A stretch of 64,000 bases of DNA from Escherichia coli O157:H7 (GTDB lineage Bacteria > Pseudomonadota > Gammaproteobacteria > Enterobacterales > Enterobacteriaceae). Below are positions 12,364-60,961 of this stretch, one piece after another. A program made the translations under genes and the position numbers. The number at the start of each line of letters is the position of its first letter. Positions within the stretch are counted from its first letter, which is position 1. The notes beneath the pieces were generated by a model. That model saw nothing but the letters and a program-made list of their open reading frames with translations. It was not told the origin of the DNA and did no database searches. The stretch is from assembly GCF_013167455.1 (NCBI RefSeq), contig NZ_CP038328.1; one strand, given 5' to 3'.

Positions 12364-12866
12364 CTGCGTCGTCGCTCAGGCTTCAGTGATTTACGTAATT
12401 CTCGCGCCAGAAAATAGCGTGTCCAGCTGCGGTTCTTTTCAAGCGTTTCCACCATAAAGTTATTACGTGGAGCCAGCCGCCAGCCGCTGCCACCGGATGC
12501 ACCACGATGATGACTACGACGACGTTTTGCTCCTCCCCGGACACCAAAAAACAGAAACGCCGGATAGAAGTCACCAGAGATCATCCGGTTCCCCTTCCCG
12601 TTGCGCTGGTTAGGGGCAATGCGTGTCATAAAACCGGCTCGCTTTTTACTGGCTCTCGGCACCATGTAACCAATCGAACGAGCCAGGCGTCCGGTCTGAT
12701 AACCGGGGTTTTCACCCGGTGCCGACCGCGCACGGCGCATCACCAGCCGACGGGCATCACGCATATGACGCTGCCCAATCGTGACAAACGCCCGCCGGAC
12801 ACGGGCGCGGTTAAAGCGCATCTCGGCGGGCTGCTGAACATCAACGTGAAAAAAGGGAGTCGCCAT
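12360..12866 (-). CDS. Virion morphogenesis protein (Mu gpG-like, uncertain)
   Basis: 168 aa basic protein, 4-nt overlap with neighbours. Confidence 0.45.
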   Translation of the reverse strand: MATPFFHVDVQQPAEMRFNRARVRRAFVTIGQRHMRDARRLVMRRARSAPGENPGYQTGRLARSIGYMVPRASKKRAGFMTRIAPNQRNGKGNRMISGDFYPAFLFFGVRGGAKRRRSHHRGASGGSGWRLAPRNNFMVETLEKNRSWTRYFLARELRKSLKPERRRR

Positions 12867-13649: not shown

Positions 13650-14879
13650 TCAACCACCAACGCTACCTTTCCCCACCAGCGCTTTAATGGCAGAGGTGTC
13701 TTCCAGGATACAGTCAAAACGATGGAAGGCCAGAAAACCGGTCTGATCATATTCCGCGTAACGCTCAACCAGACGTTTAAGAATCATGTATCGCACACGA
13801 CGGATAATGAAGCGATCAAAGTCACCACAGAACATGAATTTTTTACCCGCCCCGATATCATCAATTTCCTGATCAATGACATACGGTACATTCAACACTG
13901 AAGCAGGTGCCACACCAACAATATCCGGCAACCATAAAGGGCGTCCCTGACCGTCTTCCATCTCACTGATCAGTTTCAGCGTATTATCGTTAAACGCCAG
14001 GCGGAATTTCGGTCCGCGACGATATGCAGGATCAATGCTGTGTTTCAGAGCCAGAATTTCCTGCCACTTCACCGTATTTGCCGCGGCAGTCTGTGTTGTG
14101 CCGGTCACAGATGCGACCAGCCCTTTGGGTTGTTTAGGCGTACCAGCACCAGTTCCCTGAATCAGATAACGGGCTTCACCACGACCAATACGTTCAGCAA
14201 TGCGACGGGCAAGATAAGCTTCCATATCGATCGCACTGTCCTGCAGCAACTCATTAGACACACGAATTATTTTCGATGTCATTTTGAGCGCCCCAAGGCT
14301 TCCCATACCGAAATCGGTGTCTTCTTCACCGGCTTCTTCATTTTCGCCCAGCAGAACACCAACTTCGGAAGTACCATCAGCTGTTGCCCACTCCATAGTG
14401 CGACCGTCAGAAGTGGTAAGAATCTGCGCCACACTGGCGATGCCACCGTAGGATTTCATCTTCTCAACAACTTTCGCCAGGAATGTTTCTGGTACGGTAT
14501 ATCCGCCCTTTTCATCCTGAGCTACGCCCTGGGCACGAAGTTCACGCAACGCCTTTCGTTCTTCTGATGTCAGCTCACTGGCACCGTGACGCATCCACTT
14601 ATCAAAAACCTGAGCTCGTTTCTCATCCTGTTGTGGATTGTTTTCCGGATCAAGATTCTGACGCTGCTCTTCCTCATTGCTTTCAATGTACGCCTGATCC
14701 TGACGACGCAGTTCTTCTTCGCGTGCAATTCGTTCATCAAGCGCTTCCAGTTCGGATTTTGCTTTGTTCCACTCAGTGCGCTGCTCTTCCGTCCATGCGT
14801 TATCACCAATTTTTTCATTCAGGGCGCGCATGTCAGTTGCGATAGTATTACGTTTCTGTTTCAGTTCATGCAGTTTCAT
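13650..14879 (-). CDS. Major capsid protein (HK97 fold)
   Basis: 409 aa with coiled-coil N-terminal delta-like region followed by capsid domain; downstream of the prohead protease. Confidence 0.85.
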   Translation of the reverse strand: MKLHELKQKRNTIATDMRALNEKIGDNAWTEEQRTEWNKAKSELEALDERIAREEELRRQDQAYIESNEEEQRQNLDPENNPQQDEKRAQVFDKWMRHGASELTSEERKALRELRAQGVAQDEKGGYTVPETFLAKVVEKMKSYGGIASVAQILTTSDGRTMEWATADGTSEVGVLLGENEEAGEEDTDFGMGSLGALKMTSKIIRVSNELLQDSAIDMEAYLARRIAERIGRGEARYLIQGTGAGTPKQPKGLVASVTGTTQTAAANTVKWQEILALKHSIDPAYRRGPKFRLAFNDNTLKLISEMEDGQGRPLWLPDIVGVAPASVLNVPYVIDQEIDDIGAGKKFMFCGDFDRFIIRRVRYMILKRLVERYAEYDQTGFLAFHRFDCILEDTSAIKALVGKGSVGG

Positions 14880-16862: not shown

Positions 16863-18592
16863 AGAATTAAGAGAGCATCGTCCGGATCAAGAGATGAGAG
16901 GAAATCGTCGGGTTCTTTGAGCATTGCCCGACCGATCGCCATAATCAGCGCAACCGCACCATCGATTTTGTTTTCCGCCTGCTCCTTGACAGGCTTCACC
17001 ACATCATCGTTACCCGGAATGGTTTTGCCGACCACGTTGCCGATACACCAGGTCATGATGGGATTGCCGTCATGATGAAAGCGCCCCGATTCAATCGCCG
17101 CTTCCAGCTCTTTCATCGGATCGGACATGTTGGTGTAGTTCTGAATGATGGTGATGGGGTTCAGGTCTTCATCAGCAAGGTCATGCGACAGCCCGGTCGC
17201 CCCGAAGGGGTCGATGGGTGACTCACTGACCGGGCTGATTTTGTTCGCCGCTTTGGCCTCCTCGAGGATGTACCGATAATCCACCTCCGCACCAGCGGTA
17301 ACAGTCAGAACGCCCATTTCCACCCATTTCTGAAAGCGTTCGGCTGTCCGGCGATCTTCATTTTTCTCGACGCTGTACACCGTGTCATACGGTACCCAGA
17401 AACGCGGGGCCACACTGTAGTAATGCGTTTTACCGTCAATCTCGCGGGTATAAAGTCGCGCCATGCTGTTCATATCCAGCTTACGCGCCAGGTCAAAGGC
17501 CAGAATGCACGGCTGCCCCTCGAACTGCTCAAGGGTCAGTGATTTATCCTCGCAGCTCTGCCAGCTCACCAGGTTGAAATACGCCGAACGCGCCGACACC
17601 CAGATATTGAGGTGTTTTGTTTTAAAGACGTTTGCCAGACGGGCGTTATTTTTCGCACGCTGCTGCTGACTTAACAAAAATTCGCGATAAACCGACACGC
17701 CAATATTTGGATTGGCTTTTTCCAGCACCTGCGGGTCGATCCAGTCGTCACCTTCATCAACGGTATAGATGATCCCGAACAGTTCATCGTTGGGTACCGA
17801 ACCGTTGAGCATCTCGATAACTTCCCGCCGCTTGTCGTAGCACGGCCCCTCAATGTTGTACCCGGCGGTGGTGATGGCCCACATCAGTGGCTGACGTCGC
17901 GCCCCCATCCCGGTAAGCATCGTGGTATAAAGCGCATCGGTGGCGTGCTCGTGATATTCATCCACCACCGCACAGTGGGGTGATGAACCATCACCAGGGT
18001 TACCGATCAGCGGTTCAAACCGCGCACCATCCTCCGGACGGTTCATGTTTGAGGCGTTAACCTCAATCCCGAACGCTTCCGTCAGCATGGGTGTGCGTTT
18101 ACACATCAGTCGTGCCGGACGAAAGACTTCCCATGCCTGTTTCTCCGTCGTGGCACCGGAATACACTTCCGCGCCGAACTCGTTATCACAGGCAAAACAA
18201 TACAGGGCGACACCGGCAGAGATTGCCGATTTGCCGTTCTTACGGGGGATTTCGGTATACACCTCCCGGAAGCGGCGCAGCCGGGAGCCTTTATTGACCC
18301 AGCCAAACGCGCAGCAGATCACAAAGAGCTGCCACGGCTCCAGCGTGATGGGCATCCGTTTGAATGCCCACTCACCCTTGGTGTGCGGCAACAGCTGAAT
18401 AAATTTCGCGGCCCGTTCAGCCAGGTCCTTGTCGAAGCGGTAACGAAACGACTTACTTTTTTCCGCCATCAGGTCATCAAGATGGCGCTGGCAGGCCTGA
18501 ATCACAAACTGGCAGGCCACAATCTTTCCGCGCACGACATCACGGGCATACTGATTTGCAGCATTTACGTTGGGGTAAGATTTCCGGCTCAT
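16859..18592 (-). CDS. Terminase large subunit
   Basis: 577 aa, family-level recognition. Confidence 0.9.
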
Positions 18593-19092
18593 GATTCGAT
18601 AATTTTCAGAAACGGGTTAGTGGCTTTCTTCTGCCCCGCCAGGCCAATCAGACGCTGGCGGCTGCTGGGGTCGAGTCCGAGCATTGCCCCCGTACTGCTC
18701 ATCTCGGACTCCTGTTCTTTTTTGGCGGTCAGCTCCGGATTTTTGACCATGCCGCCCATTGCACCGGTGATGGTGTTGCCCTGTCTGGCAATATTTTTCA
18801 CGGCACGTCGCCAGAACTCATAGGCCACGCACCACCGCTCAAGCACCGCGAGGTCAGTCACGCACAGCAGGCCCTGACCGCAGAGTTCTTTGGTTGTCAG
18901 TTGCCACATGATCGTGGCGAGAGGGAGATCTTCTTCAGCGAACCACTCCGGTGGCTCAACACCTTTGATGGGCGTAAAAACAGGTTCATCTTTGTTCAGG
19001 GCTCGCTTGCCGGGGTTTCCGGCCAGCGCCTTGCGCGCCGTTGGCTTGGGGCGACGCCCGGAACGCCCCGCCGTTCCAGCCATATGCGGCAC
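18589..19092 (-). CDS. Terminase small subunit (P27-like)
   Basis: 167 aa basic N-terminus, directly upstream of the large subunit. Confidence 0.75.
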
Positions 19093-19209
19093 TCCTGGTT
19101 AAATTTCATTTTTCGCGGGTATAAAAAAACGATGGGGCGGGCAGTCCGGAAGACGTCAGGTCACAGGGATTTGACCCGCCCCTCCCCTCTGGCAGTGGGA
19201 ACTGGTTCT
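19092..19209. other. Candidate cos region between HNH endonuclease and terminase small subunit
   Basis: GC-rich 117-bp gap containing ggggcggg ... cccgcccc inverted repeat; HNH-TerS-TerL arrangement is typical of HK97-type cos packaging. Confidence 0.3.
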
Positions 19210-19658
19210 TACTTCAGCCGTTCACGGGCCGTCTTCGCCTTATGACACGGCCAGCACAGGCTCTGCAGATTGCTGTCGGCATCAGTGCCGCCATGCGCTT
19301 TAGGGATGATGTGGTCAACGGTTTTCGCCTCGCGCACCACACCGGCACGCAAACACAACTGACACAGGCCTTTGTCACGCTTTAGTACACGCCCCCGGAT
19401 AACATCCCATTTCGAACCATAACCGCGCTGGTGTCGGGACTGGCCTGGCTTGTATTGCTTCCAGCCCTCGCTTTTGTGGCTTTCGCAATAACCTGACGGG
19501 TCAGTCGTGGTATGGCGGCAGCCGCGAACTCGGCAGGCTTTTGGGGTTCGTGGTGGCATATGTACTCCAATGAAGAAGCTACCGACATAGCCTCCTCCAT
19601 TCGTCGTGAAACTATTTTCATCTACCCAGTAATGAATTCTTTGAAGAGTTGTAATCAA
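19209..19658 (-). CDS. HNH endonuclease (packaging-associated)
   Basis: 149 aa with Cys-rich zinc motifs and DHIIPKAHGG...N...C HNH signature. Confidence 0.85.
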   Translation of the reverse strand: MITTLQRIHYWVDENSFTTNGGGYVGSFFIGVHMPPRTPKACRVRGCRHTTTDPSGYCESHKSEGWKQYKPGQSRHQRGYGSKWDVIRGRVLKRDKGLCQLCLRAGVVREAKTVDHIIPKAHGGTDADSNLQSLCWPCHKAKTARERLK

Positions 19659-19678
19659 TACAACTCGCTAATGGAGAG

Positions 19679-19702
19679 GCTTGTCTCACACGTGAGACAA
19701 GC
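19679..19702. promoter_or_regulatory. 11-bp inverted repeat with 2-bp spacer (gcttgtctcac ac gtgagacaagc)
   Basis: Near-perfect dyad 20 bp upstream of the HNH start in the divergent HNH/bor intergenic region; candidate protein-binding site. Confidence 0.4.
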
Positions 19703-20084
19703 TTCCTGTTTGATTTACTGGACACTATAGAAGGACAGAATGCCTTCCTCACTCGAATCACATCAATTAAGGAGGTTCAACATGTTTCATTCCACAAGTC
19801 ATCAGGCTGTAATTATGGCAGCATCAGTTTGTGCCACAGACCTTTTCCGCTTCACTTTGAGCCTGATTCATTTCTACCTGACCGGCTCGCCTCTATCTTT
19901 TTAATCCCCGCTTTATCCAAATTGCATTGCCAGAATGCCGACAACAGACTGACATTCAAATCCTGACTACCTCCAATAGTCTGACCGTACACCTATATAG
20001 TTTTAATTTTCATCAATCCATTTAACTATCGTTTAATTGTTGTCACATAGGATTCTGCCGTTTTTAACAATGCAGGATAATAAG

Positions 20085-20378
20085 ATGAAAAAAATGTTAT
20101 TTTCTGCCGCTCTGGCAATGCTTATTACAGGATGTGCTCAACAGACGTTTACTGTTGGAAACAAACCGACAGCAGTAACACCAAAGGAAACCATCACCCA
20201 TCATTTCTTCGTTTCGGGAATTGGACAGGAGAAAACTGTTGATGCAGCCAAAATTTGTGGCGGCGCAGAAAATGTGGTTAAAACAGAAACCCAGCAAACA
20301 TTCGTAAATGGATTGCTCGGTTTTATTACTTTAGGCATTTATACTCCGCTGGAAGCGCGGGTGTATTGCTCACAATAA
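20085..20378 (+). CDS. bor: Bor-family outer-membrane lipoprotein (serum-resistance moron)
   Basis: MKKMLFSAALAMLITGCAQQTFTV... lipobox and near-identity to lambda Bor; opposite strand to the lysis genes. Confidence 0.85.
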   Translation: MKKMLFSAALAMLITGCAQQTFTVGNKPTAVTPKETITHHFFVSGIGQEKTVDAAKICGGAENVVKTETQQTFVNGLLGFITLGIYTPLEARVYCSQ

Positions 20379-20409
20379 TTGCATGAGTTGCCCATCGATA
20401 TGGGCAGCG

Positions 20410-20868
20410 CTATCTGCACTGCTCATTAATATACTTCTGGGTTCCTTCCAGTTGTTTTTGCATAGTGATCAGCCTCTCTCTGAGGGTGAAATAATCCCGT
20501 TCAGCGGTGTCTGCCAGTCGGGGGGAGGCTGCATTATCCACGCCGGAGGCGGTGGTGGCTTCACGCACTGACTGACAGACTGCTTTGATGTGCAACCGAC
20601 GACGACCAGCGGCAACATCATCACGCAGAGCATCATTTTCAGCTTTCGCATCAGCTAACTCCTTCGTGTATTTTGCATCGAGCGCAGCAACATCACGCTG
20701 ACGCATCTGCATGTCAGTAATTGTCGAGTTCGCCAGCTTCAGTTCTCTGGCATTTTTGTCGCGCTGGGCTTTGTAGGTAATGGCGTTATCGCGGTAATGA
20801 TTAGCCCATGACAAGCAAACGATGATGCAGATAACCAGAGCGGAAATAATCGCGGTTACTCTGCTCAT
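20410..20868 (-). CDS. Rz: Spanin inner-membrane subunit Rz
   Basis: 152 aa, lambda Rz-like. Confidence 0.85.
20469..20651 (-). CDS. Rz1: Spanin outer-membrane lipoprotein Rz1 (embedded in Rz in another frame)
   Basis: 60 aa [20 protein letters not shown]... lipobox followed by Pro-rich PPPPP tract, lambda Rz1-like. Confidence 0.8.
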
Positions 20869-21341
20869 ACCTCAATCTCTCTGACCGTTCCGCCTGCTTC
20901 TTTGAATTTTGCAATCAGGCTGTCAGCCTTATGCTCGAACTGACCGTAACCAGCGCCCGGCAACGAAGCCCAGATATTGCTGCAACGGTCGATAGCCTGA
21001 CGAATATCACCACGATCAATCATCGGTAAAGCGCCACGTTCTTTAATCTGCTGCAATGCCACAGCGTCCTGGCTTTTGGGGGAGAAGTCTTTCAAACCAA
21101 GCTGTTTACGGTAAGCATCCCACCAACGTGAAAGAAGCTGGTAACGTCCGGCGGCTGTTGATTTGAGTTTGGGGTTTAGCGTGACAAGTTTGCGAGGGTG
21201 ATCGGAGTAATCAGTGAAGAGTTCACCACCGACAATAACGTCATAACCGTGGTTACGTGTCGGTTGTCGTCCGTTATCCGTTCCTTCTGACCAAGCCACC
21301 ATATCAAGGAAAGCTTTACGCTGGGAATTTAGTACCTGCAT
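20865..21341 (-). CDS. R: Endolysin (lambda R-type lytic transglycosylase)
   Basis: 158 aa with near-identity to lambda R over most of its length. Confidence 0.9.
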
Positions 21342-21344
21342 AAA

Positions 21345-21680
21345 TTACTCCTTAGAGCCACCAAATTTGTTACCGATTACTCGCATTGCAGCCCCACGAA
21401 TAGCATCGACACCGATCAGCCCCACCCCACCACCAATGGCAACAGAAAGTGATTTAGGCCATCCGACATACTCAAGAGCGGATGCAAAGGTCAGCGTCAG
21501 AGCGCCACATAGCAAAATCTCGAGCGTTTTTCGCTTCCAGCCACCACCACCGCCAAAATAGGCGATGCGCAAACCAGCCATAACGATCGACATAATCACT
21601 GCACCCAGCGGTGTGTCTCCACGCCACCAGCTCTGAAACAACTCCAGCCAGTCCGGCCAGGTATTTGGGTTATGAGGCAT
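21345..21680 (-). CDS. Holin (putative)
   Basis: ORF 21345..21776; likely start MPHNPNTW... at 21680 after a GAGGTG Shine-Dalgarno; hydrophobic helices and Gly-rich segments; immediately upstream of the endolysin. Confidence 0.55.
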   Translation of the reverse strand: MPHNPNTWPDWLELFQSWWRGDTPLGAVIMSIVMAGLRIAYFGGGGGWKRKTLEILLCGALTLTFASALEYVGWPKSLSVAIGGGVGLIGVDAIRGAAMRVIGNKFGGSKE

Positions 21681-21816: not shown

Positions 21817-22131
21817 TTAAACACCTAACGCCCGACGCCCCAGCGCCATTGCTGCTTTTATTGTGGAACCGAATCCCATAAAGAAATCAGCAACCAGATC
21901 ACCAGGTCGACTACTGGCATTGATTATTTGCCTGAGCATATCCGCCGGTTTCTCGCACGGATGTTTACCCGGGTAGAACTGAACGGGCTTATGCGTCCTG
22001 ACATCGGTATAAGGCACGGAGACTGATACGGAGAAATAGCGCCGGTGAGATTTAAACTCATCCAGCAATTCAGAAGATTTGCAATTCAGTGAATCATGAG
22101 ATACCACCAACTGGTGGTAGGATTGTCTCAA
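21817..22131 (-). pseudogene. Remnant of a beta-class N6/N4 DNA methyltransferase (C-terminal part only)
   Basis: 104 aa ORF with ..FYPGKHPCEKPADMLRQIINASSRPGDLVADFFMGFGSTIKAAMALGRRALGV*, matching the HPxxKP and DPFxGSGTT-type AdoMet motifs, but lacking the upstream DPPY catalytic region; AT-rich foreign DNA begins right at its 5' end. Confidence 0.6.
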
Positions 22132-33290: not shown

Positions 33291-33640
33291 TGGAGCCATA
33301 CAGCCTCACACTCGATGAGGCCTGTCATTTTCTCAAGATATCCAGACCGACTGCCATTAACTGGATACGCACAGGGCGTCTTCAGGCAACACGCAAAGAT
33401 CCCACTAAGAATAAATCTCCTTACCTCACAACACGACAAGCCTGCATTGCGGCTCTTCAGTCTCCGCTGCATACTGTCCAGGTGAGCGCGGGTGATGGCA
33501 TAACAGAGGAAAGAAAATGTCACTCTTCCGCAGAGGTGAAATATGGTACGCCAGTTTCACATTGCCGAACGGTAAAAGATTTAAACAGTCTCTTGGAACA
33601 AAGGACAAAAGGCAGGCGACAGAACTCCATGACAAGCTAA
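33290..33640 (+). CDS. xis: Excisionase (P22 Xis-like)
   Basis: 116 aa from [37 protein letters not shown]..; HTH DNA-binding region; overlaps int start by about 124 nt. Confidence 0.8.
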
Positions 33641-34680
33641 AGGCTGAAGCATGGCGGGTCAGCAAACTTGGTGAAATACCTGATATAACGTTCGAGGAAG
33701 CGTGTGTCAGGTGGCTTGAAGAGAAAGCACATAAAAAATCGCTGGACGATGACAAAAGCCGGATCGGATTCTGGCTTCAACATTTCGCAGGAATGCAACT
33801 AAGAGACATTACTGAATCAAAAATTTATTCAGCAATGCAGAAAATGACGAACCGGCGTCATGAGGAAAACTGGAAACTCAGGGCAGAAGCATGCAGAAAA
33901 AAAGGGAAACCTGTTCCAGAATACACGCCAAAACCAGCGTCCGTTGCAACGAAGGCTACGCATCTTTCATTTATAAAGGCCCTACTAAGAGCCGCAGAGC
34001 GTGAATGGAAAATGCTGGATAAGGCACCAATTATTAAAGTGCCTCAACCAAAGAATAAACGGATCCGCTGGCTGGAGCCCCATGAAGCACAAAGGCTGAT
34101 TGATGAATGTCCGGAGCCATTAAAGTCTGTTGTTGAATTTGCACTGGCAACAGGCTTAAGACGCTCGAACATCATCAACCTTGAATGGCAACAAATAGAT
34201 ATGCAGCGCCGGGTGGCATGGATAAACCCGGAAGAGAGTAAATCAAACCGCGCAATTGGCGTTGCGCTGAATGATACTGCATGTCGCGTATTGAAAAAAC
34301 AAATCGGGAATCATCACCGTTGGGTATTTGTGTACAAGGAAAGCTGTACCAAACCAGACGGAACGAAAGCGCCAACAGTAAGGAAGATGCGGTATGACGC
34401 AAACACAGCCTGGAAAGCGGCGCTGAGACGGGCTGGTATTGATGATTTCAGATTTCACGACTTGAGACACACCTGGGCAAGTTGGCTGGTTCAAGCCGGA
34501 GTCCCGTTGTCAGTGTTACAGGAAATGGGAGGCTGGGAGTCTATCGAAATGGTTCGTCGATATGCTCACCTTGCACCTAATCACCTTACCGAACACGCAC
34601 GGCAAATAGACTCGATCCTGAACCCATCGGTCCCAAATTTGTCCCAGTCAAAAAATAAGGAAGGTACTAATGATGTGTAA
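33517..34680 (+). CDS. int: Tyrosine integrase (P22 Int-type, thrW-specific)
   Basis: 387 aa [22 protein letters not shown]...; C-terminal [16 protein letters not shown]...VRRYAHL catalytic motifs; stop 15 nt from the tRNA 3' end. Confidence 0.95.
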
Positions 34681-34694
34681 CTTATTGATTTTAA

Positions 34695-34770
34695 TGGTGC
34701 CGATAATAGGAGTCGAACCTACGACCTTCGCATTACGAATGCGCTGCTCTACCAACTGAGCTATATCGGC
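34695..34770 (-). tRNA. thrW: tRNA-Thr (anticodon CGU)
   Basis: Minus-strand gccgatatagctcagttggtagagcagcgcattcgtaatgcgaaggtcgtaggttcgactcctattatcggcacca; cloverleaf with GGTTCGA T-loop, anticodon loop uuCGUaa, encoded CCA. Confidence 0.95.
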
Positions 34771-37540: not shown

Positions 37541-38596
37541 ATGAAAAAGAGCACTCTGGCATTAGTGGTGATGGGCATTGTGGCATCTGCATCCGTACAG
37601 GCCGCAGAAATATATAACAAAGACGGTAATAAACTGGATGTCTATGGCAAAGTTAAAGCCATGCATTATATGAGTGATAACGACAGTAAAGATGGCGACC
37701 AGAGTTATATCCGTTTTGGTTTTAAAGGCGAAACACAAATTAACGATCAACTGACTGGTTATGGTCGTTGGGAAGCGGAGTTTGCCGGAAATAAAGCGGA
37801 GAGTGATACTGCACAGCAAAAAACGCGTCTCGCTTTTGCCGGATTGAAGTATAAAGATTTGGGTTCTTTCGACTATGGCCGTAACCTGGGCGCGTTGTAT
37901 GACGTGGAAGCCTGGACCGATATGTTCCCGGAATTTGGTGGCGACTCCTCGGCGCAGACCGACAACTTTATGACCAAACGCGCCAGCGGTCTGGCGACGT
38001 ATCGGAACACCGACTTCTTCGGCGTTATCGATGGCCTGAACTTAACCCTGCAATATCAAGGGAAAAACGAAAACCGCGACGTTAAAAAGCAAAACGGCGA
38101 TGGCTTCGGCACGTCATTGACATATGACTTTGGCGGCAGCGATTTCGCCATTAGTGGGGCCTATACCAACTCAGATCGCACCAACGAGCAGAACCTGCAA
38201 AGCCGTGGCACAGGCAAGCGTGCAGAAGCTTGGGCTACAGGTCTGAAATACGATGCCAATAATATTTATCTGGCAACTTTTTATTCTGAAACACGCAAAA
38301 TGACGCCAATAACTGGCGGCTTTGCCAATAAGACACAGAACTTTGAAGCGGTCGCTCAATACCAGTTTGACTTTGGTCTGCGTCCATCGCTGGGTTATGT
38401 CTTATCGAAAGGGAAAGATATTGAAGGTATCGGTGATGAAGATCTGGTCAATTATATCGATGTCGGGGCTACATATTATTTCAACAAAAATATGTCAGCG
38501 TTTGTTGATTATAAAATCAACCAACTGGATAGCGATAACAAATTGAATATTAATAATGATGATATTGTCGCGGTTGGCATGACCTATCAGTTTTAA
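37541..38596 (+). CDS. phoE: Outer membrane phosphoporin PhoE
   Basis: [21 protein letters not shown] signal peptide followed by porin sequence; 351 aa. Confidence 0.97.
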
Positions 38597-59217: not shown

Positions 59218-60961
59218 CTGAACTCCCTTGCTTTGCTTTTATTGGATTATCTGCTTTTATACCATCTAACCCGAAGAGTTGCCCAATGTTATATTTTTCA
59301 ATACATGCATCGCTACATTTGGCAGAAAAATCGCCACAAGCAATACCGACAGTGTTATTTTTAAGATCCATGATTCTTTCTTTAGCTGGCTGACCTTGTC
59401 TATCCCCAGCCGCCTCATGATTTTTACCTATCACGTCAGCTATTGTTGATCCAAATGTCTTAGTCATTCGACACATCAAGTAACAATATCTCATTGCATC
59501 GGCGGCCCCATTATGAGCTCCGCCAACAATAGCATCCATATCATAACCGAACTGGTAAGCACTGTTAGTAATGCTGTTTGCAACAATCAATCCAGGTACA
59601 CCAGATACGGCATAAATTAGTCCACCTGATGTCATATTCTCAATCGCATCTAACCCCATTGGGTCTATCACTTGTATGGGATTCAACGGATACTGATACA
59701 TATTCCATCCACCTCTCAACCCAATCGGGTCCGGGGTGATATACCGCCCCTGCAACGGATCGTAGTACCGGTGACGGTTATAGTACAGCCCCGACTCCTC
59801 ATCATGCTGCTGGCCCGGCAGACGGTACGGCTGGTGCAGGTGATGCGGGTTCTCCTCATTAAGCTGGTTGCCCCATTCATCATATTCCGCGCTCCACGCC
59901 GTATTGCCGTCTTCGCTGATAAGCGCCAGCGGCAGTCCCCGGTGGTCACAGTGGTACAGATGCAGCGTGCGCGCCGGCGTGTATTCCGGCTCCACCTGTT
60001 TTTCCAGTTGCTCCACCGTCAGTCCGCACTGCGCAAGCCACGCCCGGCTTTCACTGCTCACGCGGTCTGCCCGGATTTCTTCCTCCAGCCTGTCCAGCAT
60101 CCTCACCAGTTCTGCCGGGAACACCACACCGTGACCGTCCTCACTCCCTTCCTGCTGGAGTTTCTCCGCCAGGCTGCGGCGCTGCGCTTTCTCCCGCTCG
60201 CCGTTCTCCGTTTCGATGCGGATGAGCGGTGTGAAGCTCCCCGGCCGGTATACCGTCTGGATACGTGTGGTGCCGGTCTGTACCGTCGTCAGCCTGTCGC
60301 CGTCCCACCCGTACCAGGTCACCTCCGGTTTACGCGACAGCGACATCCACCCCGTCAGGTCACGCTCCCGCCGCCACACCCGTTTCCCCGTCCGGCGGCC
60401 CAGCGGGTCATAGAGGTAGCGGCTCTCGACCAGCGGCTCGCCGTATTGTATCCGCGTGTAGAACACCAGGCGGTGCTGGTTGTCGTAATGGTAGTGGTGG
60501 GTCCGCTCGTCGTGCATCCGGATAACCCCTTCCGGAATGCGGTCCGTCTTCTCCGTCAGCCTGCCGTATTCATCATAGCGGTAGACATAGTGCGCATCTT
60601 CCGCGATGCGGTTATCCGGCCACGCCGTGAGCGTGCTGTCCGGATGCAGTTCCGGGTCCGGCAGCCGGTTTCCTGCCGGGTCCGTTGCATACGGGATATC
60701 GATATCCAGGTTCGCTGCCGTGGTGTGGACGCCCGTCAGCCTTCCCGTGTCGCTGTAACGGTACTCCCGGCTCTCCTGCGGGCCGCTGATGCGGATTAGC
60801 TGTCCGTTGTCGTTCCAGTCGTAGTCACAGTCAAGCTGCGGGAGGTTCAGGTGCCTGCTCTGTAGCTGCCCTGTGAGGGTGTACGCCGTGACCTGTTCGT
60901 ACCCCGCTGTACTGCCCGCCCCGCCGAAGCTGCGGGCCGTCTCACGGTGCAGCCAGGGCAA
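59201..60961 (-). CDS. Orphan Rhs core fragment with C-terminal toxin tip (N-terminally truncated, likely silent cassette)
   Basis: 586 aa with YD repeats, core end ..[29 protein letters not shown].., then about 150 aa unassigned tip; abuts the ISAs1 transposase gene at 60964 with no upstream rhs sequence. Confidence 0.8.

Follow-up and report, generated by a model that had tools for sequence, protein, structure and literature searches.

In phage HK97, packaging leaves a 10-nt 3′ overhang at the cohesive-end site (cos), the HNH protein gp74 stimulates cleavage, and the terminase small subunit (TerS) binds at +15 to +29 downstream of the cut, on an A-tract (PMC11331095). Phages with this type of cos typically carry an HNH endonuclease gene beside terS (PMC3592412). 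For phage SfI, sequenced virion DNA termini define a 10-nt gap relative to the prophage, 5′-TGCCCGCCCC-3′ (PMC3636060), and the cos of SfIV is stated to be identical to those of SfI, SfII, and SfV (PMC3851460). In vitro, SP6-like polymerase is driven by TATTTACTGGACACTATAGGAGGA and by a promoter identical over 19 bases, TATTTACTGGACACTATAG (−19 to +1), to one that we describe here (PMC13029058). The present work compares with these systems the interval between terS and bor in a prophage of Escherichia coli O157:H7. The DNA analyzed, called the window throughout, is a stretch of 64,000 nucleotides from contig NZ_CP038328.1 (assembly GCF_013167455.1), to which all positions refer.

The prophage is lambdoid and of the SfV/SfIV type. 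The interval probably holds two unrelated things, a cos of the SfV/SfI type and, upstream of the HNH gene, a "hairpin then promoter" cassette copied from a podovirus and feeding a 40-codon open reading frame (ORF). In the cassette, elements that are each known are arranged in a new way: the consensus promoter for a virulent phage's private polymerase stands inside a temperate phage, before a conserved small gene, in some 14% of complete E. coli genomes. Literature searches by sequence string and by concept returned no description of the cassette, on which the SfIV genome paper is silent.

A podovirus-type promoter

The cassette occupies about 230 bp of the plus strand in the order hairpin, 10-nt spacer, promoter, 5′ untranslated region (UTR) with a Shine-Dalgarno sequence, and ORF. 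The promoter, ATTTACTGGACACTATAGAAG at 19713 to 19733 (plus strand), was assigned by identity to K1-5 sites; it is of the K1-5 type (SP6-like), for a single-subunit RNA polymerase, with a predicted start at G19730, and begins after a 10-nt spacer 3′ of the dyad described below. All 21 positions (−17 to +4) agree with four K1-5 copies (0 mismatches at 12580, 14590, 22852, and 39265), a fifth K1-5 site at 37593 has 1 mismatch, and the SP6 consensus, which was checked in the SP6 genome, differs at 3 positions. The K1-5 sites are syntenic with SP6 promoter sites. Across the 64 kb this is the sole site within 3 mismatches, and none appeared in 100 shuffles. Its core, CACTATAG, is likewise single in the window, and the G at +1 opens a purine-rich start, GAAGGA. 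Consensus promoters of T7, T3, and K11 were sought in the window, and none was found.

A sensitive BLAST search with 19640 to 19910 reached about 100 Vectrevirus/SP6-like genomes at five to six places each, the matches covering exactly the dyad and the promoter. Within IMG/VR, the exact 21-mer was met in two settings only, podovirus contigs of about 44 kb, each with several copies, and the prophage cassette, which has one; the SP6-type promoter is confined to the same two settings. Cassette copies of the SfIV type carry the promoter ATTTAGGTGACACTTTAGAAG, one mismatch from the SP6 consensus. Hairpin and promoter types go together: window-type copies pair a K1-5 hairpin with a K1-5 promoter, and SfIV-type copies pair an SP6 hairpin with an SP6-type promoter. 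The promoter is very likely to be recognized by a Vectrevirus polymerase. Because a tblastn search with the K1-5 polymerase found no homologue in the window, it appears to be an orphan promoter that depends on an incoming phage. Separately, a scan of species-representative genomes with ATTTANNNGACACTATAGAAG gave 16 matches scattered over unrelated taxa of low G+C content, where an estimated 9 or so are expected by chance; none lay in Enterobacteriaceae, no new contexts emerged, and the scan was set aside.

Hairpin upstream of the promoter

The dyad, GCTTGTCTCAC-AC-GTGAGACAAGC at 19679 to 19702, has perfect 11-bp arms around a 2-nt spacer, and arms of at least 11 bp arose in 0 of 200 shuffles of the intergenic region. 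An earlier reading from the sequence alone (the sequence-only reading) had reported a 24-bp dyad 20 bp upstream of the HNH start, in the divergent HNH/bor intergenic region, and had suggested a protein-binding site; it noted neither the promoter nor the ORF. The dyad is real and lies where that reading put it, between HNH and bor; the distance had to be corrected to 120 bp, since the HNH start is the ATG at 19559, annotated by the Prokaryotic Genome Annotation Pipeline (PGAP) and conserved in SfV orf53, and the TTG at 19658 is only the start of the longest ORF. A binding site near HNH is disfavored by that distance, by compensatory changes in the arms, by homology to podovirus hairpins, and by the K1-5 promoter next to it.

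Read on the plus strand, the dyad forms a terminator-like hairpin whose extended stem spans 19676 to 19705 and which is homologous to intergenic hairpins of SP6-like podoviruses. Its stem of 13 pairs (6 of them G-C) closes a 4-nt loop and leads into a T-rich tail, CTGTTTGATT, and a consensus scan flagged the structure as terminator-like. A second, small, weakly conserved hairpin, GAGTTGTA-ATCAA-TACAACTC, lies at 19646 to 19666 (plus strand); the plus-strand RNA containing both (19640 to 19722) folds at −32.2 kcal/mol (z = −4.96). The small hairpin was considered as a functional element and rejected, as variants break one or two of its pairs with only partial compensation; it is probably not essential.

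The core of the dyad, GTCTCAC-NN-GTGAGAC, is present in five copies in K1-5, with one GTCCAAC variant, and its SP6 counterpart, GTCTAAC-NN-GTTGGAC, is present in six, with a U·G wobble in the sense strand only. These podovirus copies lie mostly between genes, several of them directly 5′ of promoters. The 21-mer also follows the K1-5 hairpin at 14559, where hairpin and promoter are spaced nearly as in the window (22 nt at K1-5 14559 to 14610, 21 nt in the window). That K1-5 hairpin has no T-tail; a homologous hairpin in phage R4596 was labeled a putative terminator by its depositors. Members of the hairpin family were located at 559, 6002, 6183, 6983, 8393, 9570, 14559, and 31015 in K1-5 and at 493, 6093, 6264, 7071, 8547, 9383, 14255, 17752, and 30569 in SP6. 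This family of 16-nt palindromes is phage specific, some copies lying within the primase/helicase gene and one, inverted, near the left end; inside each podovirus genome, its sequence is conserved beyond the pairing.

The gap between HNH and bor was aligned with its counterparts in SfIV, in an induced phage of E. coli, and in five prophages of that species (eight sequences in all). The dyad differs between lineages yet stays symmetric, with TCTCAC/GTGAGA in the window and TCCAAC/GTTGGA in others. Nine distinct prophage variants were compared: double changes that compensate each other occur at two pairs, pairing is kept in 93% of cells on the plus strand versus 81% on the minus strand, and the single changes are G·U compatible on the plus strand only. 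Together with the SP6 wobble, this pattern is moderate evidence, from a small and related sample, for a hairpin acting in single-stranded plus-strand nucleic acid over an operator acting as duplex.

Two other roles for the palindrome were weighed against these data. It could be a duplex operator at which a dimeric protein regulates HNH or bor, as would be suggested by the perfection of the palindrome (arms of 11 bp, spacer of 2 nt) and by its place between divergent genes; the conservation of core sequence, and not of pairing alone, within each podovirus genome could also mean sequence-specific recognition. The ATG codons of HNH and bor, however, are 120 bp and 384 bp away from the dyad, and the lambda-homologous region upstream of bor starts only at about 19966. 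Where one half-site of the dyad switches from TCTCAC to TCCAAC, the opposite one changes to match, pairing is strand asymmetric (93% versus 81%), and the SP6 motif carries the sense-strand U·G wobble in all six copies. A sigma-70 promoter scan of 19050 to 20120 found none, and no candidate binding protein is linked to the dyad. An operator of HNH or bor is therefore unlikely.

The palindrome could instead act in the minus-strand late mRNA of the prophage, in processing, stability, or attenuation between the lysis genes and HNH-terS, the likeness to a promoter being irrelevant. It folds on that strand as well (−28.5 kcal/mol, z = −5.1) and lies inside the late operon, between the lysis and packaging genes. 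Pairing is nevertheless better preserved on the plus strand, and the minus strand offers no T-tail. SfV, SfI, SfII, and ST64B keep the HNH-cos-terS module without the hairpin, and such a role would leave unexplained both an exact 21-nt K1-5 promoter 10 nt away and the hairpin-promoter units of the podoviruses. We hold it to be very unlikely, less likely even than an operator, and retain the plus-strand hairpin. An Rfam search of 18500 to 20500, at E values up to 1, returned only a chance microRNA match inside bor.

5′ untranslated region and 40-codon reading frame

Downstream of the promoter, a perfect Shine-Dalgarno sequence, TAAGGAGGT (19768 to 19776, plus strand), stands 5 nt before the ATG of the 40-codon ORF MFHSTSHQAVIMAASVCATDLFRFTLSLIHFYLTGSPLSF (19782 to 19904, plus strand). 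It is invariant in the eight-sequence alignment. The pattern used to scan IMG/VR was drawn from the UTR only and itself required the Shine-Dalgarno sequence, and the IMG/VR loci are thus not independent evidence for it.

The ORF encodes 40 amino acids in all 95 complete copies, a 96th running off the end of its contig. Its two halves evolve differently. In codons 21 to 40, 8 of 10 nucleotide changes are synonymous in the ORF frame (calculated P of about 4e-4 at a neutral expectation of 25%), but read in the antisense LysC frame that overlaps it none of the changes is synonymous; the sole other frame with a similar synonymous count is full of stops. From this substitution pattern, the C-terminal half is judged to be under purifying selection. 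The N-terminal 20 codons (19782 to 19841) are hypervariable, with up to 28% divergence, and the C-terminal 20 almost invariant; the variability could reflect diversifying selection or an absence of constraint. Divergence between lineages is 0 to 6% in the 5′ UTR, 2 to 6% in codons 21 to 41, 21 to 33% in the dyad, and up to 28% in codons 1 to 20. The hairpin is thus the most diverged segment of the cassette (21 to 33%) yet is still paired. A tblastn comparison of the peptide with K1-5 and SP6 gave noise only.

Distribution and origin of the cassette

The cassette is present in 749 of 5,426 complete E. coli genomes (about 14%) and in the inducible phage SfIV. The UTR-pattern scan of IMG/VR identified 87 loci, all with the hairpin and promoter upstream, and the context is the same at every one: terS (minus), HNH (minus), cassette (plus), and LysC, whole or as a remnant.

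In the window, the remnant is the 3′ end of an Rz1/LysC-type gene at 19852 to 19992 (minus strand), recognized by homology to the intact lysC of E. coli 00-3076, EC17CM13, and SfIV. Because this remnant marks the old end of a replaced lysis module, we conclude that a lambda-type S-R-Rz-bor block (20086 to 21680) replaced lysis genes of the LysB/LysC type, and that the promoter cassette belongs to the end of the module that was replaced. The LysB/LysC-type lysis genes are intact in SfIV and some E. coli prophages, and the joint in the window falls at about 19971 to 19990. Rearranged copies of the promoter cassette were seen in two IMG/VR contigs, one (of L161 and L162) breaking in mid-hairpin and the other directly after promoter position +4; these may be insertion or recombination joints. 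In some relatives (L014 and L015), a further 64-amino-acid hypothetical gene (1203 to 1397, minus strand) lies in an insertion of about 330 bp between the cassette and HNH.

Possible function

The identity of promoter and hairpin to podovirus sites, the kept complementarity, the intact ORF with a constrained C-terminal half, and the invariant context are the observations that an explanation has to accommodate. As the window encodes no polymerase of the SP6 type, no expression of the cassette is to be expected before infection of the lysogen by an SP6-like podovirus. The infecting phage would bring its own polymerase and fire the cassette from G19730. The upstream hairpin would insulate the ORF, predicted to be strongly translated, from stray plus-strand read-through, and the 40-amino-acid product would counter the invader through abortive infection or exclusion. 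That the unit is an anti-phage defense is a tentative proposal. The same caution applies to its fuller form, a natural "promoter trap" in which a prophage senses a virulent podovirus through its RNA polymerase and an insulated effector of 40 amino acids aborts or blocks the infection; we regard it as possible rather than probable. Such a trap would keep working after host polymerase shut-off, and the fast-evolving hairpin, the K1-5 and SP6 promoter versions, and the hypervariable N terminus of the peptide could then be read as the trace of an arms race. In a variant of the scheme, the processive polymerase would read on for about 10 kb into the plus-strand repressor, yfdR-yfdT, and integrase genes.

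Several observations weigh against a functional cassette. About one-third of the copies carry one to three promoter changes (at −12 to −10, −5, −3, −2, and +2), and IMG/VR scans with the variant promoters beginning ATTTACTTGAC and ATTTAATGGAC returned prophage cassettes only and no podovirus; since a third of copies vary and these two variants match no IMG/VR podovirus, constraint on the promoter is not demonstrated. An interruption (TTCCTGTTTGATTT) breaks the T-tail that follows the hairpin. Of the 29 changes in codons 2 to 20, only 3 are synonymous, which indicates no coding constraint there. Searches of 5.8 billion and 1.84 billion proteins matched the peptide to cassette copies only, making it an orphan, and it belongs to no PHROGs, Pfam, or PADLOC family and matches no defense family. 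The hydrophobicity of the peptide is no more than moderate, its grand average of hydropathy (GRAVY) being 0.8 in the window type and 0.45 in SfIV-type copies; it shows no clear transmembrane segment and is not an obvious membrane toxin. The 5′ UTR folds no better than its shuffles (z = −0.03) and so has no unusual structure; a candidate hairpin in it (GAAGG...CCTTC) was rejected on that account, its segment being also fixed by the search pattern. Hairpin and promoter could have been imported jointly and kept passively, and the difference between the two lineages could stem from two separate imports rather than from selection.

The main rival to a defense role is that the hairpin, promoter, and ORF are a neutral relic, SP6-like podovirus DNA that illegitimate or short-homology recombination brought in where the lysis module ends and that hitchhikes, without function, on a successful packaging module. 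The podovirus homology spans just about 60 nt (hairpin and promoter), promoter variants occur in about one-third of copies, two of them with no known podovirus match, the peptide has no homologues, its N-terminal half evolves like noncoding DNA, and rearranged copies exist. A relic would not be expected, however, to have 8 of 10 C-terminal changes synonymous in the ORF frame and 0 in the LysC frame, a constant ORF length in 95 of 95 complete copies, or a 5′ UTR and Shine-Dalgarno sequence that are its most conserved parts. Nor does it account readily for the fastest-evolving element, the hairpin, keeping its pairing through compensatory changes, or for the covariation of hairpin type with promoter type in agreement with two podovirus genera. 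We consider the relic a serious but doubtful alternative. Should a podovirus indeed fire the cassette, the trigger would be the invader's own transcription enzyme, a principle of anti-phage sensing that we did not find in the literature searched, and there would be consequences for the use of K1-5-, K1E-, and SP6-type phages as therapy against lysogens of E. coli and Shigella.

The cos site

The gap between HNH and terS (19084 to 19208), described in the sequence-only reading as GC-rich and containing a ggggcggg/cccgcccc inverted repeat, was the location at which that reading expected cos for HK97-type packaging. The repeat is present, as GGGGCGGG at 19134 to 19141 and CCCGCCCC at 19175 to 19182 with 33 nt between; the GC-richness is only mild (55% G+C in the gap, 69% in its core at 19134 to 19182, and 50.5% in the window). 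As an 8-bp inverted repeat arose in 32 of 500 shuffles of the gap (6%), the repeat alone is weak evidence. It gains weight from conservation and from the mapped ends of relatives.

Megablast comparisons with phage records showed that this gap contains both the start and the end of four linear records (SfV, SfIV, SfI, and SfII) and of the circular ST64B record. Junctions were made by joining the end of each phage record to its start and were aligned to the minus strand of the window; the five are nearly identical to it from the HNH stop to the terS start. The cohesive-end sequence of SfI, TGCCCGCCCC, known from the virion ends and the end of the SfI record, corresponds to window positions 19143 to 19134 (minus strand), the equivalent of cosN, and the left arm of the repeat (19134 to 19141) is therefore the cohesive end itself. 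The expectation of a cos in this gap thus agrees with the junctions of all five phages.

Some 25 bp upstream of the cut lies a G-run with a TCAAATC box, GAGGGGAGGGGCGGGTCAAATC (19168 to 19189, minus strand), within which the right arm of the repeat sits. It was identified by its conservation in relatives, being kept in SfV, SfIV, SfI, SfII, ST64B, two Klebsiella phages, and HK97 (GGGGGGGGGATCAAATC). A GC-rich end follows about 25 to 30 bp past the box (in HK97, GACCGCCGCCAAA up to the cut; in the window, GACTGCCCGCCCC up to the cut) and then a T-run, so that the window shares with HK97 and the Klebsiella relatives the layout G-run/TCAAATC ... GAC(C/T)GCC...CC ... T-run. Between the cut and the start of terS, a leader with a T7 run and an A5 tract (19084 to 19133, minus strand) is identical in SfV, SfIV, and SfII and is also conserved in ST64B and the Klebsiella relatives. 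By analogy with HK97, the leader (19133 to 19084) is probably the cosB-like region bound by the small terminase. We infer the site rather than transfer it, because this TerS is unrelated to HK97 gp1. A BLASTP search gave no significant match between the two proteins, a point that weighs against a simple HK97 model of the site; the present TerS would work like that of HK97 but lies outside its family.

By its alignment with these phages, the gap is taken as the cos of an SfV/SfI-type packaging module, and the sequence-only reading was correct on a matter of already known biology. The terminase, aided by the adjacent HNH protein, would cut to leave the 10-nt cohesive end in HK97 style. That cos lies elsewhere, or that packaging is headful and the gap repeat fortuitous, we consider highly improbable: such a repeat does turn up in 6% of gap shuffles, but the gap matches the SfI cos with its sequenced ends, its architecture is held in common with HK97, and the adjoining HNH and terS genes are typical of such cos phages (PMC3592412). 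One other exact copy of TGCCCGCCCC exists in the window, at 60913 to 60922 (plus strand); it falls in coding DNA of an RHS-repeat pseudogene and was judged a chance occurrence. In Klebsiella phage Kp4882-1, similarity to the window ends at the cos cut (about 19147), and cos is therefore a mosaic joint; the cos end of this phage (CCCAAAGGACCGCCGCC) is closer to that of HK97 than to that of SfI. An SfI-type packaging site in an O157:H7 prophage, while not new, aids the prediction of virion ends and transduction boundaries.

Prophage setting

Matches of 100% to the window were found in many chromosomes of E. coli O157:H7. The region studied is the right end of the prophage, which is integrated at tRNA-Thr (thrW) beside proA; the integrase gene (plus strand, about 33562 to 34770) abuts the tRNA-Thr next to proA, an attachment site common to SfV, SfI, and SfIV. 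A cI-like repressor, yfdR, yfdT, and the integrase lie on the plus strand, downstream in the direction in which the cassette is transcribed.

The late operon runs on the minus strand from holin, endolysin, and Rz (21680 to 20410) through HNH, terS, and terL to portal, and bor/iss (20086 to 20378) lies within this region on the opposite strand. A truncated DNA methyltransferase pseudogene (21817 to 22131, minus strand) was annotated by PGAP just upstream of the holin in the identical locus. Between HNH and bor lies a gap of 526 bp without annotated genes, and between HNH and terS a gap of 125 bp.

The HNH gene (19209 to 19559, minus strand, 116 amino acids), of the packaging-associated type by PGAP and the SfV orf53 annotation, directly precedes terS-terL-portal, as ORFs, annotations, PHROG, and Pfam all indicate. 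Its product matches PHROG 144 (E value, 1.7e-45) and Pfam HNH and is 38% identical to HK97 gp74 over 65 amino acids. The first gene after cos is terS (18589 to 19083, minus strand), taken from the ORF list and PGAP of the identical O157 locus; its product matches PHROG 83 (E value, 4.5e-60) and Pfam PF05119 (P27/Terminase_4 family).

Comparison with known systems

The closest described packaging sites are those of SfI, SfV, SfIV, and SfII, in which about 200 bp across the HNH-cos-terS junction are all but identical to the window, with the same gene order and the same thrW/proA attachment site. The window shows no substantive difference from the SfI group at cos; it differs upstream of HNH, where SfV, SfI, and SfII have no cassette and SfIV has the SP6-type version. 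HK97 shares the order HNH, cos, terS, the G-run with an (A/G)TCAAATC box, the GC-rich 10-nt end, the T-run, and a cut at the aligned position. It differs in its terminase, the TerS of the window being of the Terminase_4/P27 family with no BLAST similarity to gp1, and the HNH identity extends over only 65 amino acids (38%). The polarity of the 10-nt 3′ overhang is a fact of HK97; for the SfI group, length and sequence are what is established.

The cassette most resembles the intergenic units of the SP6-like podoviruses (K1-5, K1E, Vectrevirus; SP6, Zindervirus), with which it has in common the 21-nt K1-5 consensus promoter, the hairpin core, and a similar spacing, followed by a purine-rich start and a strong Shine-Dalgarno sequence. 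In contrast to those phages, the cassette stands alone, as one orphan copy, in a lambdoid prophage of the myovirus type that has no polymerase gene; it opposes the late operon of its host phage, and its ORF is absent from the podoviruses.

Two further systems are alike in logic. Phage-triggered suicide cassettes have been engineered, reportedly by Djordjevic et al. in 1997 in J Bacteriol, and the pET vectors are expression vectors based on the T7 promoter. These designs also combine an upstream terminator, a promoter that only a phage factor can use, and a short effector gene behind a strong ribosome-binding site; those systems are man-made, whereas the arrangement in the window is natural and its effector role conjectural. 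In satellite P4, the promoter Psid is activated by Ogr of phage P2, so that a satellite gene is switched on by another phage's transcription factor. There, as would be the case here, the promoter of a resident element answers to the transcription machinery of a different phage, but promoters of the P4/P2 type use host RNA polymerase with an activator and serve propagation of the satellite, whereas the promoter in the window is of the kind used by the single-subunit polymerase of a virulent phage.

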